Shown: positions 6,626 through 15,724 of the stretch, piece by piece
Layout: each line of letters opens with the position of its first letter
Numbering within the stretch: position 1 is the stretch's first letter
Assembly (NCBI GenBank): GCA_046318155.1
Contig: JBKCUU010000121.1
Coordinates: 1 to 15,724 of the forward strand
Length of the DNA: 15,724 bases
Direction of reading: 5' to 3'
From: Bdellovibrio sp.
GTDB taxonomy: Bacteria > Bdellovibrionota > Bdellovibrionia > Bdellovibrionales > Bdellovibrionaceae
Program-made: the position numbers and the translations under genes
Notes under the pieces: generated by a model
Seen by the model: only the letters and a program-made list of their open reading frames with translations
Databases searched by the model: none
Told to the model about the DNA's origin: nothing

Positions 6626-8491
6626 GTGGTCAAACACGTTATCGCAATTCTAGGGATCTTCGTGGCCTCAGCCGCCGCCGCCCAAGACTATGTTCCCGGC
6701 GAAGTTCTCGTCAAAATGAAGGGCCGTGCCTCCGGCTCAAAGTCGGCTGCCTTCATGGGCAAAGTCTCCTCGAAGCTCGCACTGAAGACGACCTATGGCC
6801 GTCTGAACATCCATCACATGAGTCTTAAATCGGGCCAAGATCTGCAAAAAGTGTTGGCCGAGTTGCGCGAAAATCCTGATGTCGAGTTTGCGGAGCCCAA
6901 TTTTGTTTTACGTAAAGTGCAAGAGGCACCTGGTCCCGGCAACCGCGTTTATTCCGTTGAAGAAGCAGGCCAAGTGGCCGCTCAATCGGCACCCGGTGAA
7001 TCCTACCACCAATCTTACGCCGATACCAAAGTGACCGAGACTTGGGCGCAGCTGAACGCGGGAAGTGACGATGTCATTGTGGCGGTTATTGATACCGGCG
7101 TTGATTACGCGCACGAGGTTTTTACAGAAACCAATTCGATCTGGAGAAATCCAGGCGAAATCGCCGGCAACGGGGTCGATGACGACGGCAACGGTTTTAT
7201 TGATGACATCCGTGGGTGGAACTTTCAGGGGCGCAACAATAATCCCATGGATGATGATGACCACGGCACCCACGTGGCTGGGATCGTTGTGGGAGTGGGA
7301 CAAGACATCATCCTCGGGCCTCGTGAGAATTCAAAAATCAAAATCATGCCTTTGAAATTCTTAGGTGCTGATGGGTCGGGTTCAACTTCAGATGCGATCT
7401 CGGCGATCTACTATGCCGCCAATAATCAGGCGCAAGTGATAAACAACTCCTGGGGCGGCGGAAGCTATAGCCAATCGCTTCACGATGCTCTTGCCTACGC
7501 TTACAGCCAAGGTGTGGTGCTGGTCGCGGCGGCTGGCAACTCCAAATCAAATAATGATTCAAGCCCCCTTTACCCTGCTAACTATCCCGTGCCCAGTCAA
7601 ATCTCGGTTGCGGCAACCAATGATTGGGATGTGCTGGCTTCATTTTCTAACTACGGTGCAAGTACGGTTCACATGGCAGCTCCCGGTGTGGGCATTTACT
7701 CGACCGTTCCTGGAAACTACTTTCGTTATATGAGCGGAACTTCGATGGCGGCACCCTTCGTCGCCGGGCTTGCGGCCTTGGCGATTCGAGAGGCACCGCA
7801 TTTGAGTGGTTATCAAATTCGCAATCTCGTGATTAACGCTTCATCGCCCATCGCCGCGCTCGCGCCGCGAACCGCCTCGGGATCGCGCGCCAATAGTTTG
7901 AGCACTGTCGTCAGCGCCAAAGGCCAAGGTGCGGTCAGTGCCGAGCAGCCTGGTTATGTCGCCTCGGCTCCGGCTGGTTACCGCGCGCCCGGTTCGGTTG
8001 AAGCAGCAGGTGGCTGCGGCTTGGTCTCAACCGCCGTCATGAGGCAGTCGTTCGGCAAGGGCGGCGGAACAAAAGGGGGGGGCTCCTCAGGATCGCCTCT
8101 GGGGTTGATTGTGGCGCTCACGCTTTTGCCTGTGCTGGCTTGGCAAGTGATTCGAATGCACGCTTTGGCGAATCCAAAAAATCGTCGCCGCTTTGAGCGC
8201 TTCGTGATGAATTCAGAAGTTAAAGTTCGCGTTGGTGATCGCGAGTTGGTCGGACAAATGAACACGATCTCGATGGGTGGGGTGTCGTTTAAAGCCGATG
8301 CCTTGCTTGAGCAAGGCGGCGTGGTCACCTTGCAGATCGCCAGTCCCGACGGACAACAGCAGGTGCAGGTCGAAGGCCGCATCGTCTGGAGTGAGCAGAA
8401 CCAAGCTTACGGTGTGCAATTCGGCGAGAACAAGGCCTCGGCCTTGGACAGCATCAAAGATTGGACGAAGGGTCTTGCCAAGGCCTCTTAG
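6626..8491 (+). CDS. S8 subtilisin-like serine protease with signal peptide, prodomain, C-terminal TM anchor and PilZ domain
   Basis: GGGAG SD then GTG. Signal peptide ending ASAAAA/QD. Prodomain YVPGEVLVK...VEFAEPN. Catalytic triad VAVIDTG, HGTHVAG, SGTSMAAP and oxyanion AAAGN. TM PLGLIVALTLLPVLAWQVI. PilZ motifs RRRFER and TISMGG...GRIVW...YGVQF. Confidence 0.93.
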   Translation: MVKHVIAILGIFVASAAAAQDYVPGEVLVKMKGRASGSKSAAFMGKVSSKLALKTTYGRLNIHHMSLKSGQDLQKVLAELRENPDVEFAEPNFVLRKVQEAPGPGNRVYSVEEAGQVAAQSAPGESYHQSYADTKVTETWAQLNAGSDDVIVAVIDTGVDYAHEVFTETNSIWRNPGEIAGNGVDDDGNGFIDDIRGWNFQGRNNNPMDDDDHGTHVAGIVVGVGQDIILGPRENSKIKIMPLKFLGADGSGSTSDAISAIYYAANNQAQVINNSWGGGSYSQSLHDALAYAYSQGVVLVAAAGNSKSNNDSSPLYPANYPVPSQISVAATNDWDVLASFSNYGASTVHMAAPGVGIYSTVPGNYFRYMSGTSMAAPFVAGLAALAIREAPHLSGYQIRNLVINASSPIAALAPRTASGSRANSLSTVVSAKGQGAVSAEQPGYVASAPAGYRAPGSVEAAGGCGLVSTAVMRQSFGKGGGTKGGGSSGSPLGLIVALTLLPVLAWQVIRMHALANPKNRRRFERFVMNSEVKVRVGDRELVGQMNTISMGGVSFKADALLEQGGVVTLQIASPDGQQQVQVEGRIVWSEQNQAYGVQFGENKASALDSIKDWTKGLAKAS

Positions 8492-8531: not shown

Positions 8532-8572
8532 AAAAATAAAAACCCCTCTCGGCTCGAGAGGGGTTCTTGTTT
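8532..8572. terminator. Bidirectional intrinsic terminator
   Basis: Perfect 11-bp stem AACCCCTCTCG-GCT-CGAGAGGGGTT (8541-8565), A-rich on the left and T-rich on the right, between convergent genes. Confidence 0.9.
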
Positions 8573-9208: not shown

Positions 9209-9959
9209 AAGAGTGATCCCATTTTTTCAGCCTGTAAAGCCCCGAAACAGATCTCTCGACCTCGGTGGGTCCAGATGATCTCGAGGCCAGAAACTCGGTC
9301 CAACGGGTGGTGGCTCCGGGCAGATTGGATTCAAAAAATGGGGGGAGCGGGCTTTGCAAAACTTGAGTGGTTCCTCGTGGCGCCCAGATCAAGGCGGCGG
9401 CGTGCAGTCCCAAGCGCAGATCCGCGACGTGCTTGGCCAGATTTTGATTGTACTTAGGGTCTCCGTACCTGGAGTCTCCGACAAGTTCACACTTTGCAAT
9501 TGCGGCGTGCTTTCGGATCTGGTGCTGACGACCCGTTTCAAGAATCATCGCCGAAAAAATCAAATGACGAGACTCCAACAGCGGACACATTTTTGTCCAG
9601 CAAGGAACGCGGTCTTTCGAGAGGCCTTGAGGGTTTTTGCGCCCCTCAGATTTGTCGGTGAGGGCCCAATCCCAAACGCGGGCTTCGGGTGTAAAATCTT
9701 GAGGCCGGCGGTGCAAGCCGACGTAAATTTTTTGCGTCGATTCGCTTTGCCAAAGCTTTTGGTAGGCTTTGACCTTGTCGCTCGAGCGGATGGTGATCAC
9801 GAGGCCGCTGGTCTCGGCATCCAAGCGGTTCAAAAAGTGGGCGGGTCTTGAGTGCTGGGCCTGAATCATTTCGAGCAAAGAGGGCGCCTCATTGTGGGTG
9901 CTCATACCAGTTGGCTTGTCCCAGACATCAAAATCCGGAGCGGCGAGGAGCGGGTTCAT
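9207..9959 (-). CDS. RluA-family RNA pseudouridine synthase (no S4 domain)
   Basis: DKPTGM, NRLDAETSG (catalytic Asp), ETGRQHQIRKH, VGDSRYG, LHAAAL. TGATG coupling to mgtE. Confidence 0.92.
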   Translation of the reverse strand: MNPLLAAPDFDVWDKPTGMSTHNEAPSLLEMIQAQHSRPAHFLNRLDAETSGLVITIRSSDKVKAYQKLWQSESTQKIYVGLHRRPQDFTPEARVWDWALTDKSEGRKNPQGLSKDRVPCWTKMCPLLESRHLIFSAMILETGRQHQIRKHAAIAKCELVGDSRYGDPKYNQNLAKHVADLRLGLHAAALIWAPRGTTQVLQSPLPPFFESNLPGATTRWTEFLASRSSGPTEVERSVSGLYRLKKWDHS

Positions 9960-11362
9960 CAAAGCAGCGTACCTGCCATGATCAGGCTGGCCACGGTAAA
10001 GTAAATGATCAGACCGGTGACATCGACCAGGGTTGCGACAAAAGGCGCCGAGGCGGTGGCGGGATCGAGTTTACATTTGCGCAAAATAAAGGGCAGCATC
10101 GAGCCTGAAATCGTGCCCCAGAGAACGCAGCCAATGACGCTCACCCCCACGGTCATCGCGACGACCGCGTAGTGCTCGCCGTAAAGGGAATTGCGAGTTG
10201 GCCAAAAGTAAATCCGCGCCATCCCGACAAGTCCCAAAATCAACCCGAGTGAACCGCCGGCGGCGAGCTCGCGGATCAGCACCCGCCACCAGTCGCGCAG
10301 GCGCAATTCACCAAGAGCCATCGCGCGGATAATCAGCGTCGACGCCTGAGAGCCTGAATTACCACCACTCGAAATAATCAAAGGAATGAACAAAGCCAAG
10401 ATCACGGCTTTTTCGATTTCGTGATGAAAGTAACCCATGGCGGTTGCCGTGAACATTTCACCGACAAACAGGATAATCAGCCAGCCGGCACGTTTACGAA
10501 CCAGCTCAAAAAAACCAATCTTCATGTAAGGGGCGTCCAAAGTTTCGACGGCGCCTAATTTGTGAATATCCTCCGTGGCTTCTTCTTCAAGAACGTGGGC
10601 GATATCGTCAAAGGTCACGATCCCTTTGATGTGGTCCCATTCATCAACAACGGGGACGGCCATAAATTCATTCTGCGAAAAGATCTTGGCGACTTCTTCT
10701 TGATCCAGACCGACCGGAATTTTAATCAAATCCGTTTTCATCACGTCACGGATTTTTTTATGAGCCTGAGACGAGAACAGTTCGCGAAAGGACACAACCC
10801 CCAGCAGAGTTTGATCGGCATCGATGACGTAGGCGTAATAAATGGTTTCGACCTGCGTTTTGGCTTGAATCCGTAAGTAGCTGATCGCCTCATCCACGCT
10901 CATGTCGGGCCGAAGGCGAATGAAGCGTGAACTCATCAAGCCACCGGCGTTGTCTTCAGAATAAGCTAAGAGGGCGGTGACTTCCCGGCGGGTTTGCGTA
11001 TCCAAGCAGTCCAAGATCTCATCGCGGTGTTCGAGCCCCATCTCTTGAATCAAATCGGCGACGTCATCGGGCGCGAGCAAGCGAACCCAGGCCCGCTTTT
11101 CTTTGGGCTGGGCCTCTAAGATCAATTCGGATTGGGCATGGGCCTTGAGGCTTAAAAACAATTCGACGGCTTCGGGGCGAGCCAAGCTTGCAAACGCGGA
11201 TTTGCGCTCGCCGATCGACATCGCGCTCCAGGTCTCGAGCATCACATCAAAAGGATCGGCCTCGCTGGAGGAAGAGGACGGCAGTTCGTGGCCCTCGTCT
11301 GGCCGCAAGTTTTCGATTTCAGGCGTCGGGAGATCCTTCGGATCTTGATCAGAACTCGTCAC
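9959..11362 (-). CDS. mgtE: Magnesium transporter MgtE
   Basis: MgtE_N domain, CBS pair (AGGLM...ETIYYAYVID, VPVVD...GIVTFDD), five-TM domain with GGNSGSQ and DPATASAPFVATLVDVTG. Confidence 0.96.
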   Translation of the reverse strand: MTSSDQDPKDLPTPEIENLRPDEGHELPSSSSSEADPFDVMLETWSAMSIGERKSAFASLARPEAVELFLSLKAHAQSELILEAQPKEKRAWVRLLAPDDVADLIQEMGLEHRDEILDCLDTQTRREVTALLAYSEDNAGGLMSSRFIRLRPDMSVDEAISYLRIQAKTQVETIYYAYVIDADQTLLGVVSFRELFSSQAHKKIRDVMKTDLIKIPVGLDQEEVAKIFSQNEFMAVPVVDEWDHIKGIVTFDDIAHVLEEEATEDIHKLGAVETLDAPYMKIGFFELVRKRAGWLIILFVGEMFTATAMGYFHHEIEKAVILALFIPLIISSGGNSGSQASTLIIRAMALGELRLRDWWRVLIRELAAGGSLGLILGLVGMARIYFWPTRNSLYGEHYAVVAMTVGVSVIGCVLWGTISGSMLPFILRKCKLDPATASAPFVATLVDVTGLIIYFTVASLIMAGTLL

Positions 11363-13299
11363 TCGCCTAACATGCCCGAGCTTGGGGCAAAGGACAAGTT
11401 GGCCTTTTCGAATTCCTCCAAAACTTCACGGGTGGGGCCGAGCCGGTGAACCTGCCCGTTTTGTAGCCAGAGGATGCGGTCGCAGGAACGCAATGTCGAC
11501 AGGCGGTGGGCAATGATGATTTGCGTTCGCCCGGCAAAAAAGTCCTCGGTGGCTCGAACCAGAATTTCTTCACTTTTGGGATCAATCGCGCTGGTGGCCT
11601 CGTCCATCACGACGACGGGGCTATTCTGGAGCAGGCAGCGGGCCAGACAGATCAGCTGTTTTTCACCGACCGAAAGATTGCGGCCTTTTTCATCGATGAT
11701 CTTATTCAATCCCGCTTCGTCCGACCACTCTTCAAGGCCCACGCGTTTGAGAACGCCGGCCAATTCTTGATCGGTGTGCTCAAACTCGACATCCAAGTTG
11801 TCGCGCAAGGTTCCGCGGAACAAGGCCGGGTCCTGCGCAATAAAGGCGACCGAGCGCCGATACGCTTTCAGGTCCAATACCGATGCAGATGAAGAGTCTG
11901 AGTGACGAGGCGACAAGCCGCTGATGCTGATCCGGCCTTGGTCAATGGGGTAAAGATGAAACAAGGCTTGAATCAAGCTGGATTTACCTGAACCTGTTCG
12001 TCCGACAATGCCAAAACGTTCGCCGGGTTTAATCTCAAAGCTCAAATTTTTGAGCACCCACGGCAAGTTTTCATTGTAGCGGAAGCTGACGTTGTCAAAG
12101 CGCACGGCGGCCGCTTTAAGACCCGTGAGTGGATTGGATTTGCGCTCTAGCAGATCGCGGGGCGCATCTGTTGCGTGCTCGGTTTTAAAAAGAACTTTCA
12201 GCGGAAGGCGCGAGCCCGGCTCCAAGGGCGCTCGCAAGTATTGATTCATCCGCTCGACGCCCACCATCGCTTCTTCAAATTGCGCGAGCCATTCAAAAAA
12301 CATTTGGACGGTGTTGCCCGAGAGGGTAATAAAACCAAACGCAACACCCACGGCACCGACGCTTAAAGAGCCATTTTGCACGCCCCACAGAGCTAGAAAC
12401 GCAGACCCAATCAACATCAAAGCGGTGAGGATATTCATCTGCAAAGCAAAGTTCACGATGGCTTTTGTCGTTCGCAATTTTTGCAATAAATAATAGTTGT
12501 CCAGACCTTCAAAGCGTTTTGAAAAACTGTCTTGCTTGATAAAGCTGCGAATCGTCGAAGCCCCTTGTGCGGTTTCAGAAAAATGTGCGACCGAGGGCGA
12601 GCGGCTGGCCGAAAGTTCGCGCCGGCAATCGCGCAAGGTTGTTTGATTGCGCTTGTAAACCTGGTACTGAAAAAATCCTAAGACCACGATCAAAGGGAGG
12701 AAGAAAGGGCCGGCAACGGCGGTGAGCACCAGCATCCAAAACAGATCAAAAATGATGGATAAAAATTCGGCCAAGGGTCCACCAAAAAGGCGAAAGACAT
12801 TGCCGTAGTCGCTCGAAAAGCGAGTGACGACACGGCCAACGGGCGTTTGGTCAAAAAACGACATCGGAAAACGCGACGTTCGTAATGTGGTTTCATCATA
12901 CAGTGTGCTCACGGCATGGGCCGATACACCCGAAAATCCGACGCGAAAAATCCAGGTGAGAAAAAAACCCGAGACAACCATGGCTGAGAGCAACTGGATA
13001 AAGTCATCATTACCATAACTTTGGAGCCAGCCTGGAAGAGTCCGGCAGCCGGGGCCTTGGCAAAGCGAATCCACCCACCAGCCGATGATATTGGCGTTTG
13101 CTAGAAGCAGAGCGCGGCCGACAAAGCCCAGGATCAAGAACAGCAAAAGCCAAAGCCGGTAGGGCGCGTAGGCAAACTTCAAGGCTTGAAAAACGGCCGG
13201 ATCAAACTTTCCTTGAAAGCGGCTTTCGGACTGGATCAATTTGTCGTTCTGACTTTGGATCTGATTTTGGGGGGAACTTTTGTTCGAGGATTTGCTCAT
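11359..13299 (-). CDS. ABC exporter half (TMD+NBD), ABCC/MRP C-terminal-half type
   Basis: PMSFFDQTPVGRVVTRFSSD, SRSPSVAHFSETAQGASTIRSF, VGVERMNQY, Walker A GRTGSGKSS, QDPALFRGTLRDNLD, degenerate signature LSVGE, Walker B VMDEATSAID, IAHRL. Confidence 0.93.
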   Translation of the reverse strand: MSKSSNKSSPQNQIQSQNDKLIQSESRFQGKFDPAVFQALKFAYAPYRLWLLLFLILGFVGRALLLANANIIGWWVDSLCQGPGCRTLPGWLQSYGNDDFIQLLSAMVVSGFFLTWIFRVGFSGVSAHAVSTLYDETTLRTSRFPMSFFDQTPVGRVVTRFSSDYGNVFRLFGGPLAEFLSIIFDLFWMLVLTAVAGPFFLPLIVVLGFFQYQVYKRNQTTLRDCRRELSASRSPSVAHFSETAQGASTIRSFIKQDSFSKRFEGLDNYYLLQKLRTTKAIVNFALQMNILTALMLIGSAFLALWGVQNGSLSVGAVGVAFGFITLSGNTVQMFFEWLAQFEEAMVGVERMNQYLRAPLEPGSRLPLKVLFKTEHATDAPRDLLERKSNPLTGLKAAAVRFDNVSFRYNENLPWVLKNLSFEIKPGERFGIVGRTGSGKSSLIQALFHLYPIDQGRISISGLSPRHSDSSSASVLDLKAYRRSVAFIAQDPALFRGTLRDNLDVEFEHTDQELAGVLKRVGLEEWSDEAGLNKIIDEKGRNLSVGEKQLICLARCLLQNSPVVVMDEATSAIDPKSEEILVRATEDFFAGRTQIIIAHRLSTLRSCDRILWLQNGQVHRLGPTREVLEEFEKANLSFAPSSGMLGE

Positions 13300-15167
13300 C
13301 CGTCCTTCCCTTCGATCAAATCTAAGGAAGCGTTCGCGGCCTCATCCCCGGAGGCAACCAGGGGTAAGGGCTGAATCGAAGCGGTTTCATGTCGCTCTAA
13401 GCTGGCCGTGTAGTCACGAAACTCGGGGCTATTTTTCAAGAGTTCCGCAAAGGTGCCCTCTGCTTTGAGCCGCCCCTGATCCAAAAACAGAATGCGGTCC
13501 ACCTGACGCAAAACACTCAAGCGATGAGTGACCAGCAACCGCGAGCGGTTTTTCCAAGGACCTGAGAGCAAATTGTGAATCAATTTTTTCTCGGTGTCGA
13601 CATCGACGGCGCTTAAGCAGTCATCCAAGAGGACGATGGGGGATTGATAAAAATCCACGCGGGCCAAGCTGACCCGCTGCTTTTGCCCGCCTGACAAGTT
13701 GACCCCGCGTTCGCCGATATCGGTGTCAAGACCGTTTTCGACCCGCTCTTTTTCGATGTCAAACTGGGCTCGGCTGAGGCTGGCTAAAATAAGGGGATCA
13801 TTTTCTTTGTCGGAGTTGTACTGAAAGGCCACGTTTTCACGTAAGGTCGCCGACATGATAAAGCCTTCTTGCGGTACAAAGGTAAAAAACTGGCGCAGCT
13901 GATCGAGAGGCAGCTTGCGGGCATCATTTTCGCCGATCCAAAATTCTTTAAACGTCGCGCCCGTTTCGCCCATGAGCGAAAAGAGCAGCAAACTCTTGCC
14001 GCTGCCGACTTCGCCGACGATGGCTAAGAATTCTCCGACTTTGACTTCAAAATTAAGATCTTCAAGCAGCGAGTGTCCGTCAATCTCAAGACTGAGGCCG
14101 CGTACTTTTAAAGCGGGGTCGGGAGTCTCTAGACTGATGAGTTTTTGGAATTCGCGCGCCCTGGGCAGCGGTTCACGGTTGCGCAGCAAGAGGAGCTCGG
14201 AGACTCGTTTAATCGATGTCCAGGCATCAAATACAAACGTAAAAAACCAGGGCATCTGCCGAAAGGGGCGGGTCATAAAAATGGCAACAATCCACAAAAG
14301 TGCCAGCAAGGTTCCTGACGTGATCGTTTCTTTTTGGATGTTGATCAAGACCGAGATCAGCACGACGTTCAAAACAAACGTGATGCTCGAAGCAATTCCA
14401 TTCATCGTCTGCCCATTGTTGAGCATCGAGATCCGGTTGCGAGTTTCGACCCGCCGCACGTGAAAAATCTTTTCTTCAAAAGCCGAGATCCAGCCCAGGA
14501 TGCGCAGCGTGCGCATGTTTTGGATCCACTCATTGACGTAGCCCACGCGGTCGGCGGCCAAGCGCTTAAACTGAAAAAAGTATTCGCTCTGGCGAAAAGC
14601 TAGAAAAAAGTTAAGTACGAGCACGGCGCCTAAGATCGGAAGCAGGACGCTGGCGGGCACATTTAAAAAATAAATCAAAACAAGCGGAGCGAGCGTCAGC
14701 GGAAACACAATGCCCAAACCTTGCGGAAGACTTTGCTCCAGAAGAATGGTCGCTCCCGGCACATCGACAGTGTAGATCGAGACGATCTCGCCCACGGGTT
14801 TTCGGTGCAAGGATTCTGTTCGCAGCGAGAGCGTGTGATCGTAAAGACGTTGCGACAAACGACGCTGCATCCAAAGCGATTCGCGGGTGCCCAGGTAGAT
14901 GACGGCCTGGCTTAAAGCAAGAGCTCCGAGCAAACTTAGAAAAGTGAGAAAGAGAAGGCTGCCCTGAGAAAAAGCGTCGAGTGCTCGAATCTGAACAAAC
15001 GAAAATTGCGAAGAGCCCGAGAGGCGGTCTAAAAAAACTTTCTGAAACAGGGGCCCCAGTAGTCCGCACACAGTCGAGAGAAAAGCCAGAGCCAGCATCA
15101 GGACTCGAACCCAAAACCGCGTGAAAAGAATCTCAAGAAGGAGTCGAAGTGGGGAGGCATTCATCAC
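13296..15167 (-). CDS. ABC exporter half (TMD+NBD), ABCC/MRP N-terminal-half type
   Basis: DRVGYVNEWIQNMRTLRILGW, SIKRVSELL, Walker A GEVGSGKS, IGERGVNLSGGQKQRVSLAR, degenerate Walker B LLDDCLSAVD, LVTHRL. Start is GTG 15167 or ATG 15164. Confidence 0.93.
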   Translation of the reverse strand: MMNASPLRLLLEILFTRFWVRVLMLALAFLSTVCGLLGPLFQKVFLDRLSGSSQFSFVQIRALDAFSQGSLLFLTFLSLLGALALSQAVIYLGTRESLWMQRRLSQRLYDHTLSLRTESLHRKPVGEIVSIYTVDVPGATILLEQSLPQGLGIVFPLTLAPLVLIYFLNVPASVLLPILGAVLVLNFFLAFRQSEYFFQFKRLAADRVGYVNEWIQNMRTLRILGWISAFEEKIFHVRRVETRNRISMLNNGQTMNGIASSITFVLNVVLISVLINIQKETITSGTLLALLWIVAIFMTRPFRQMPWFFTFVFDAWTSIKRVSELLLLRNREPLPRAREFQKLISLETPDPALKVRGLSLEIDGHSLLEDLNFEVKVGEFLAIVGEVGSGKSLLLFSLMGETGATFKEFWIGENDARKLPLDQLRQFFTFVPQEGFIMSATLRENVAFQYNSDKENDPLILASLSRAQFDIEKERVENGLDTDIGERGVNLSGGQKQRVSLARVDFYQSPIVLLDDCLSAVDVDTEKKLIHNLLSGPWKNRSRLLVTHRLSVLRQVDRILFLDQGRLKAEGTFAELLKNSPEFRDYTASLERHETASIQPLPLVASGDEAANASLDLIEGKDG

Positions 15168-15176
15168 GACTTCAGA

Positions 15177-15722
15177 CTAAGTCGTGCGAAACCAAGCGGT
15201 CAAACTGTAGCGGGGTCTTTTTGGTGATTGGACCGAATGCAGGATCGTATCAGAGCGAAAGAGCACCATTCGTCCCCCCACAGGCAAGACGCGTGTCACT
15301 TCAGATTCTTCATGAATCAGGAGTTCGCCTTCGTCCTCGGCGGTCCAATTTGAGTTGAGATACAGAATAAACGAGATGGCGCGTTTTGACGGGGTGAGCT
15401 GGCTGCGGTCCATGTGGGGAGCATAAAATTGGCCCGGTTCGTAGACGGCAAAATGGGCCTCAAAATGATCAAGACCTAAGAACAATTCGCGGTTCAGCTC
15501 GGCTTGCAAATCACCCAACTTGGTTTTGACCAAGGGCCAGCAAGTGTCTTGTTCACCTAGCCAAAAAATGCGGTCGCTCCGGACCGTGGGTAGATACTCT
15601 TTGTCCCCACCGAGTCCAGCCGGACGAAATCCTTGCACGTGAGCGTCGGCTTCAAGGCGCCCAGCTGACCCCTCACTGCGGGTGGCCCAGTCATTCTCCA
15701 CCGACCAAGATTTTTCGACCAG
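15177..15722 (-). CDS. 2OG-Fe(II) oxygenase, PHD/EglN (SM-20)-like; 5'-truncated by the window edge
   Basis: RSDRIFWL, HFAVY, HxD triad FYAPHMD, ILYLN..W...GEL, distal His HSV, 2OG-binding RYSLTAW. The frame stays open to the window end (LVEKSWSVENDW). Confidence 0.9.
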   Translation of the reverse strand: MVEKSWSVENDWATRSEGSAGRLEADAHVQGFRPAGLGGDKEYLPTVRSDRIFWLGEQDTCWPLVKTKLGDLQAELNRELFLGLDHFEAHFAVYEPGQFYAPHMDRSQLTPSKRAISFILYLNSNWTAEDEGELLIHEESEVTRVLPVGGRMVLFRSDTILHSVQSPKRPRYSLTAWFRTT

Positions 15723-15724
15723 GT

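Follow-up and report, generated by a model that had tools for sequence, protein, structure and literature searches.

An overlapping pair of half-transporter genes in Bdellovibrio as a probable unfused early branch of the ABCC lineage

Transporters of the ABCC type, a group of ATP-binding cassette (ABC) proteins that includes MRP, SUR and CFTR, carry two transmembrane domains (TMDs) and two nucleotide-binding domains (NBDs) on a single chain in the order TMD1-NBD1-TMD2-NBD2. We analysed a stretch of 15,724 nucleotides from a Bdellovibrio species (contig JBKCUU010000121.1 of assembly GCA_046318155.1; this whole stretch is hereafter the window), in which two overlapping genes, P0001 and P0002, encode the same four domains in the same order but as two open reading frames (ORFs) that are out of frame with each other. 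A first-pass annotation had read the pair as a eukaryote-type ABCC transporter in two parts, and had left its origin between a relative of ABCC that predates fusion and a eukaryotic gene that underwent fission. What, then, is this pair, and on which side of the fusion does it stand? Both halves were found to belong with the corresponding halves of ABCC proteins, as a stem group outside the clade of fused and eukaryotic ABCC forms. We consider it probable (roughly 0.6) that this predicted heterodimeric type IV exporter is no broken eukaryotic gene but an early offshoot of the ABCC (MRP/SUR/CFTR) lineage that has survived in unfused form.

Each of the two proteins contains an ABC_membrane and an ABC_tran domain above the Pfam cut-off. 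In P0001, a TMD1 that lacks the N-terminal lasso is followed by an NBD1 with a full-length segment between Walker A and Q-loop, a canonical LSGGQ signature, a degenerate Walker B (LLDDCLSAVD) and a retained H-switch. P0002 opens with a leader of the pattern E..F.G....V...L..AY and continues with a TMD2 bearing the ABCC-type motifs FFD.TP.GR...RFS.D and SRSP...HF.ET..G..TIR, and with an NBD2 that combines a catalytic DEATS with a degenerate LSVGE signature. The best sequence matches in the PDB are ABCC proteins, by N-terminal half for P0001 (MRP1, residues about 400-875) and by C-terminal half for P0002 (ABCC5, residues 821-1409), and the named homologues come from Bdellovibrio and its kin. At the junction, which reads GAAGGGAAGGACGG-ATGA, the start codon of P0002 (ATG, 13299-13297) overlaps the stop codon of P0001 (TGA, 13298-13296), so that the two genes may well be translationally coupled. 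An alternative GTG start for P0001, one codon before the ATG, would begin at 15167. Thus the two TMD-NBD genes, their ATGA overlap, the purine-rich stretch ahead of the second gene and all motifs quoted in the first-pass annotation are present in the DNA and its translations.

The pair consists of two real genes, and the split is both real and old. All 26 relative loci that show both halves contain two ORFs in the same order; in the 15 wide loci among them the two ORFs lie in different frames in every case, and 11 further loci likewise show both. A match to P0002 was present in every one of 18 Bdellovibrionaceae genomes and, outside this family, in 2 of 12 families of the order, and in a sample of 400 genomes of the phylum, with four candidates scored per genome, the first half was present in all 56 Bdellovibrionaceae genomes and in 14 others. 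One internal stop was seen in 3 of 21 P0002 matches, and the one examined (L033 of G015) resolved into two intact ORFs. In two short contigs that stem from other studies the sequence runs through the junction unbroken, in one with no differences (X5 record 9) and in the other with a single substitution (X7 record 16), at a depth below 3. That a single gene was broken by an assembly frameshift, for which only the 4-nt overlap speaks, is therefore a negligible prospect beside the agreement of independent contigs and of all 26 loci, and this objection, raised in the annotation itself, can be set aside. No fused form of the split family was found among 8000 longer candidates, the best of which were 28-36% identical. 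A 960-aa open frame in G308, considered as a fused gene of the split type, was rejected; it is a long upstream open frame, and the genes are still two. No relative of the pair was found in viral contigs, a metagenome scan with P0326 gave no match, and in plasmids P0002 matched only generic ABC exporters (25-30% identity) and P0001 nothing at E 1e-38.

The affiliation of the halves with ABCC does not depend on any one domain. A profile of TMD2 alone, run against 1.84 billion proteins, retrieved about 58 family members and, after these, mostly full-length ABCC-type proteins. When both halves were placed in one joint tree, those of the split family grouped with the ABCC halves at Shimodaira-Hasegawa-like approximate likelihood ratio (SH-aLRT) supports of 100 and 99; the same grouping was obtained from TMDs alone (100 and 97) and from NBDs alone (94 and 95), P0299 being omitted from these separate trees. 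Because it holds for TMDs and NBDs separately, the pair is not a chimera. Neither half grouped with the MdlA or MdlB types and the pair thus falls outside the MdlAB/YheIH clade, which supports, as regards MdlAB types, the earlier claim that the halves are closer to ABCC than to typical bacterial heterodimers. In the NBD trees, MdlA types give rise to the NBD1 of the ABCC lineage and MdlB types to its NBD2.

The genome that holds the pair also encodes a separate MdlAB-type pair and a single-ORF, ABCC-like protein of 1240 aa (L036:4751-8473; G000:C49), which has a lasso-like start, a DDP D-loop, an NRW motif and a shortened NBD1 and is much more eukaryote-like than the split pair. Such genes are not confined to it: 59 of 400 other sampled genomes have a fused form, and the type is widespread in the phylum and also found in a few genomes of Kapabacteria, Ignavibacteria, Hyphomicrobiales and Didemnitutus. 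A motif scan of 185,579 GTDB genomes yielded 271 ABCC-type TMD2 matches; among the 80 of these that were listed, 68 belong to Bdellovibrionota and 10 to other phyla, and every complete ORF is fused. A second, divergent fused type (L047, L048) has a TMD2 about 30% identical to that of the main fused type. One fused bacterial gene, L046:2375-5950 (G184), has the exact eukaryotic spacing of 35 between Walker A and Q-loop; it sits in a bacterial operon of overlapping genes whose neighbours resemble, by eye, ATP-grasp and aminotransferase genes. In most of the trees it is the sister of the eukaryotes. It is known from one genome with 6% contamination and could be a transfer from eukaryotes. In addition, a second split lineage (L172-L177; L149:1083-4723; L154:1306-4946) was found in Silvanigrella relatives and one other family. 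It comprises about 60 half-size proteins, with Silvanigrella, Fluviispira and Spirobacillus entries among them and some under an automatic 'subfamily C' label, and is present in 30 of 131 genomes of the Silvanigrella group and in 3 of 401 genomes, these three all in one family. Its N-half, directly upstream in 6 of 8 fetched loci, combines a lasso-like start with a long NBD1 segment and shows DDP in 5 of 6 cases; its C-half carries an RW motif.

To order these forms, trees were built from rows hand-picked for diversity (38 for the N-half tree, 29 for half-wise approximately unbiased (AU) tests, 27 and 33 for concatenations, and another set of 31). In the careful N-half tree the fused and eukaryotic forms made a clade that left the split family outside (99/93), with L046 as sister to the eukaryotes (100/99), and in the C-half tree, from which 17 of 77 rows had been dropped, the corresponding clade again excluded the split pair (support 99). 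The concatenation of 33 rows and 1111 columns, in which 4 of 8 second-lineage loci were used, branched from MdlAB types to the split family, then to the second split lineage (joined at 97.3) and then to the fused and eukaryotic forms (99.4), with L046 and the eukaryotes together at 99.9. On this concatenation AU tests rejected a grouping of split with fused forms (p 0.0003), of split with eukaryotic forms (2e-5) and of all bacterial forms (0.011), whereas a single clade of all split forms was not rejected (0.062). On the C-half, split with fused was rejected at p 3e-7 and the all-bacterial clade at p 2.6e-5. Site profiles for both sets of tests were taken from the rival topology; an earlier 27-row test with profiles from the free tree had given p 0.001 for split with fused.

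Architecturally, the split pair stands outside ABCC: it has no lasso, no NBD1 deletion, no DDP D-loop and no MRP pore arginine, and the label 'eukaryote-type ABCC' does not hold as a statement of membership. The lasso (L0) before TMD1 is given as an ABCC feature in a passage of PMC8640958, and lasso and a 13-residue NBD1 deletion are given as ABCC/MRP1 features in a portion of PMC10305233. P0001 starts about 15 residues before the first transmembrane (TM) helix, and the lasso region is a gap when it is aligned to fused and eukaryotic rows. The spacing from Walker A to Q-loop is 48 in P0001, a value shared by 23 of 28 split halves, by MdlA and by every NBD2. It is 35 in 89 of 95 eukaryote-type sequences, and 83 of 88 fused ORFs fall within 35-45 (these ORFs include a few duplicates; a motif-counting script gives values one higher). 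The segment retained in the split halves aligns gap-free to MdlA. The D-loop divides the groups in a similar way: among the split halves, 25 of 28 have DD[C/S/T], the form also seen in MdlA types, and DDP is the form of 87 of 88 fused sequences and of 91 of 95 eukaryote-type ones. Two split first halves from one genus (L032:8703-10358 and L058:5431-7086) combine a short NBD1 segment with DDP, apparently through an independent origin or conversion from a fused paralogue.

Other characters separate the groups in the pore and join them at the ATP sites. Arginines of the NRW and LNW.R motifs of MRPs have a role in anion binding. A review section describes only a cationic and a hydrophobic pocket. 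The LNW.R column holds Glu in 13 and Asp in 2 of 15 split rows; fused rows have Arg there in 19 of 20 cases and eukaryotic rows in 19 of 26. The NRW motif is missing from the split consensus. Invariant in the split family are E95, K200, W291, R302 and W306 in TMD1 and R62, R119, R170, W337 and Q340 in TMD2. The ABCC-type coupling motifs of TMD2 (FFD.TP.GR...RFS.D; RSP...HF.ET) are present in the split pair. The asymmetry of the ATP sites proposed earlier was also supported: Asp at the NBD1 Walker B and LSxGE in NBD2 were each found in 15 of 15 split rows, in which the catalytic Glu and His of NBD2 are invariant. The Asp is not an ABCC marker, because all 14 MdlA-type outgroup rows have it as well, and the NBD motifs that had been cited as an ABCC fingerprint turned out to be common to MdlA and MdlB types. 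Neither the split halves (about 162 bits for P0001, 233 for P0002) nor the fused gene reached the TIGR00957 cut-off of 1470 bits.

Several observations weigh against an unfused early branch. The two NBD1 characters are not clean markers, since 4 of 28 split halves are shortened in NBD1 and 2 of these have DDP, which is homoplasy, and the MRP model scores the split halves at 233/161 bits, compared with 448/308 for fused halves and 176 for an MdlB type. The TMD trees join TMD1 and TMD2 of ABCC inside the MdlB types, unlike the NBD trees, so that the deep signal is inconsistent; either an early replacement of a TMD or long-branch attraction would account for this. Tests on the N-half do not reject split with fused (p 0.235; 0.087) or split with eukaryotic forms (0.053). 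Long stems lead to the split family (1.2) and to the outgroup (1.7), a setting that pulls a derived group toward the root and whose pull the AU test shares. Most trees came from fast or quick searches supported by SH-aLRT only, the outgroups were 16 pairs with none of TmrAB, TM287/288 or LmrCD, and the eukaryotic rows were BLAST-near matches with no plant row. Given the long stems, the search settings, the hand-picked rows and this choice of outgroups, long-branch attraction retains some weight. In the structural comparisons the top Foldseek match of the P0001 model was TmrB, and a pass in the pairing test described below can come from likeness to solved heterodimers.

These points bear most on a history of fission, in which a fused ABCC, bacterial or acquired from a eukaryote, split, lost its lasso and diverged fast enough to be drawn to the root by long-branch attraction. 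Fused ABCC genes occur in the same genome and in 59 of the 400 others sampled, the N-half tests permit split with fused, the stems are long, and two split halves of one genus carry the short segment with DDP; we nevertheless judge this history unlikely, though it deserves to be taken seriously, for it is rejected by the C-half and concatenated AU tests even with rival-tree profiles, and it would require the 13-aa segment to be regained in a form that aligns gap-free to MdlA, DDP to revert, and the lasso-bearing split lineage to have undergone a further fission of its own. Of the two origins left open in the annotation, the pre-fusion one is thus favoured by the concatenated and C-half tests and fission is rejected there, but not in the N-half. 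It is improbable that split and fused bacterial forms are one radiation beside eukaryotic ABCC, with an order of fusion that can no longer be read and perhaps two fusions: the N-half test of split, second split and fused forms together gives p 0.08, and the subtree of TMD1 differs in order from that of the NBD, but the concatenated and C-half tests reject such a clade and the lasso, DDP, NRW, LNW.R and a shortened NBD1 are common to fused and eukaryotic forms. The idea of an ordinary MdlAB/TmrAB-type heterodimer, whose likeness to ABCC would reflect convergence or old motifs, has been largely refuted and is very improbable. The shared NBD motifs, the Foldseek ranking of TmrB and the equal scores of P0001 on the MRP and MsbA-like NCBIfam models (about 162-163 bits) fit it; against it stand a separate MdlAB-type pair in the genome, the grouping of all four domains with their ABCC counterparts, and a TMD2 profile that goes on to ABCC and not to MdlB.

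If the pair is an unfused early branch, an MdlAB-like pair would have given rise to split ABCC-like pairs, one line of which gained a lasso, underwent a single fusion and then had its NBD1 shortened. A broader and more tentative scenario, which we regard as possible but not favoured, is that Bdellovibrionota and their kin keep the whole series of the birth of ABCC (lasso-less split, lasso-bearing split, partly shortened fused, and exact-deletion fused forms sister to eukaryotes), and that eukaryotes took the already fused ancestor of MRP, SUR and CFTR from these predatory bacteria before their own last common ancestor.

The pair consists of two adjacent TMD-NBD genes with a type IV fold, as expected of a heterodimeric type IV exporter, and structural modelling predicts that their products pair. 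The model of P0001 has six TM helices and an NBD, with a predicted local distance difference test (pLDDT) value of 83.6. A complex model of P0001 12-590 with P0002 30-362 reached an interaction prediction score from aligned errors (ipSAE) of 0.73, while the best of three controls gave 0.00; of 157 solved pairs 116 attain the mark for pairing, and of 215 mismatched pairs 2 do so. The runs agreed in 97% of contacts, with a partner pLDDT of at least 76. Together with the PDB matches by half and the trees, this upholds the proposal of a heterodimer in ABCC domain order. The modelled interface includes P0002 237-256, the TMD2 coupling helix, and P0001 420-429, the kept NBD1 segment, an arrangement that would fit a full socket. 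Structure comparison fails to separate ABCC from other type IV exporters, the top Z values of 27-29 being tied at a root-mean-square deviation (rmsd) near 8, and the NBD1 of MRP1 matches structurally with an rmsd of 1.9 and 36% identity.

In the mechanism suggested by the models and by analogy with known heterodimers, TMD1 and TMD2 would form a domain-swapped, 12-helix pump in the inner membrane. The invariant Glu and His of NBD2 and the LSxGE signature point to one hydrolysing and one degenerate ATP site. ATP would be hydrolysed at the site composed of the NBD2 Walker A, Glu567 and His598 with the NBD1 LSGGQ, and the other site (NBD1 Asp515 with NBD2 LSVGE) would bind ATP and hold the dimer together; the cycle would power alternating-access export toward the periplasm. 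As to the substrate, we lean, at somewhat short of even odds, to a charged, polar amphiphile, for instance a lipid or metabolite, that the cell routinely makes or encounters, on account of the core-gene status of the pair, the invariant Arg, Lys and Trp residues in both TMDs and the acidic residue in place of the MRP pore Arg. Broad detoxification is a possible role that we rate somewhat lower, and glutathione-type conjugates are an improbable choice; the conjugate export guessed at earlier found no support among the residues.

Among known systems, the pair resembles the eukaryotic short ABCC proteins (MRP4/ABCC4, MRP5/ABCC5 and the core of MRP1 and Ycf1) in its PDB matches in domain order, its TMD2 coupling motifs, its degenerate NBD1 Walker B and NBD2 signature and the kinship of all four domains. 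It differs from them as two genes without lasso, TMD0, linker or R region and with Glu or Asp in place of the LNW.R pore Arg in all 15 split rows, and its NBD1 keeps 13 residues that MRP1 lacks (according to the portion of PMC10305233 cited above). With MdlAB, YheIH/BmrCD, TmrAB and TM287/288 it shares the layout of TMD-NBD genes as neighbours, led by the one for the Asp-bearing half, the full NBD1 segment, a DD[C/S] D-loop and the same fold; unlike the MdlAB types, it forms a separate, long-stemmed clade joined with ABCC and has ABCC-type TMD2 motifs. The fused ABCC of Bdellovibrionota (L036) occurs in the same organisms and shares its lineage and ATP-site asymmetry, but is a single chain with a lasso-like start, DDP, NRW, LNW.R and a shortened NBD1, and its TMD2 is only about 20-30% identical to that of the split family.

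The main text of Xiong 2015 (PMC4649718), as far as available, infers that ABCC stems from the fusion of two divergent prokaryotic halves and reports that small prokaryotic clades, left unnamed, branch at the base of either half; it names no living donor lineage there. For the unfused stage the split family offers a specific candidate, and one that culturable Bdellovibrio carry. In the available parts of a review of CFTR evolution (PMC8640958) the word 'bacterial' occurs once and 'prokaryot' never. Our literature search found no account of split or fused bacterial ABCC in Bdellovibrio, a result with the proviso that surveys of Bdellovibrio transporters and the supplement of Xiong 2015 may note the genes, and a two-gene exporter on the ABCC stem is probably undescribed so far. 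The two split lineages and the fused forms together make the order of lasso, fusion, NBD1 deletion and anion pore testable, and they offer small bacterial models much closer to MRP and CFTR than TM287/288 or TmrAB. The value of the pair is evolutionary; its transport mechanism would be that of an ordinary heterodimeric type IV pump.

The pair lies in a compact run of genes, an oxygenase gene, P0001, P0002 and mgtE (Table 1), and the flanking two genes are likely to be in the same operon as the pair. The 4-nt overlap between P0001 and P0002 is not special, because P0002 overlaps mgtE in the same way (11359-11362). In 11 of 26 loci mgtE is the next gene after the pair, all 11 inside Bdellovibrionaceae, and one upstream gene family, which from its size and place appears to be the oxygenase, is common to 7 of 26. 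Both genes were considered as functional partners of the pair; since the link found no support outside the family, we treat them as synteny. A promoter scan remained at chance level (4 compared with 2.9).

Table 1. Coordinates of the half-transporter pair and its adjoining genes in the window
Feature	Position	Strand	Basis or remark
First half-transporter, P0001 (622 aa)	13296..15164	-	ORF from ATG; Pfam domains
Second half-transporter, P0002 (646 aa)	11359..13299	-	ORF; Pfam domains
Purine-rich stretch and ATGA stop/start overlap	13296..13313	-	Junction letters; out-of-frame in 15/15 relatives
2-Oxoglutarate (2OG)-Fe(II) oxygenase gene	15177..15724	-	Directly upstream of P0001; start may lie past the window edge
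mgtE magnesium channel gene	9959..11362	-	Start overlaps the P0002 stop

Elsewhere in the window, a forward-strand gene at 6626-8491 combines a subtilase, a membrane segment and a C-terminal PilZ domain in one reading frame; 8 of 26 loci have a comparable gene in the vicinity of the pair. Between this subtilase gene and a converging gene for an outer-membrane protein, a strong hairpin with T-runs on both strands (8538-8568) is likely to act as a two-way terminator.

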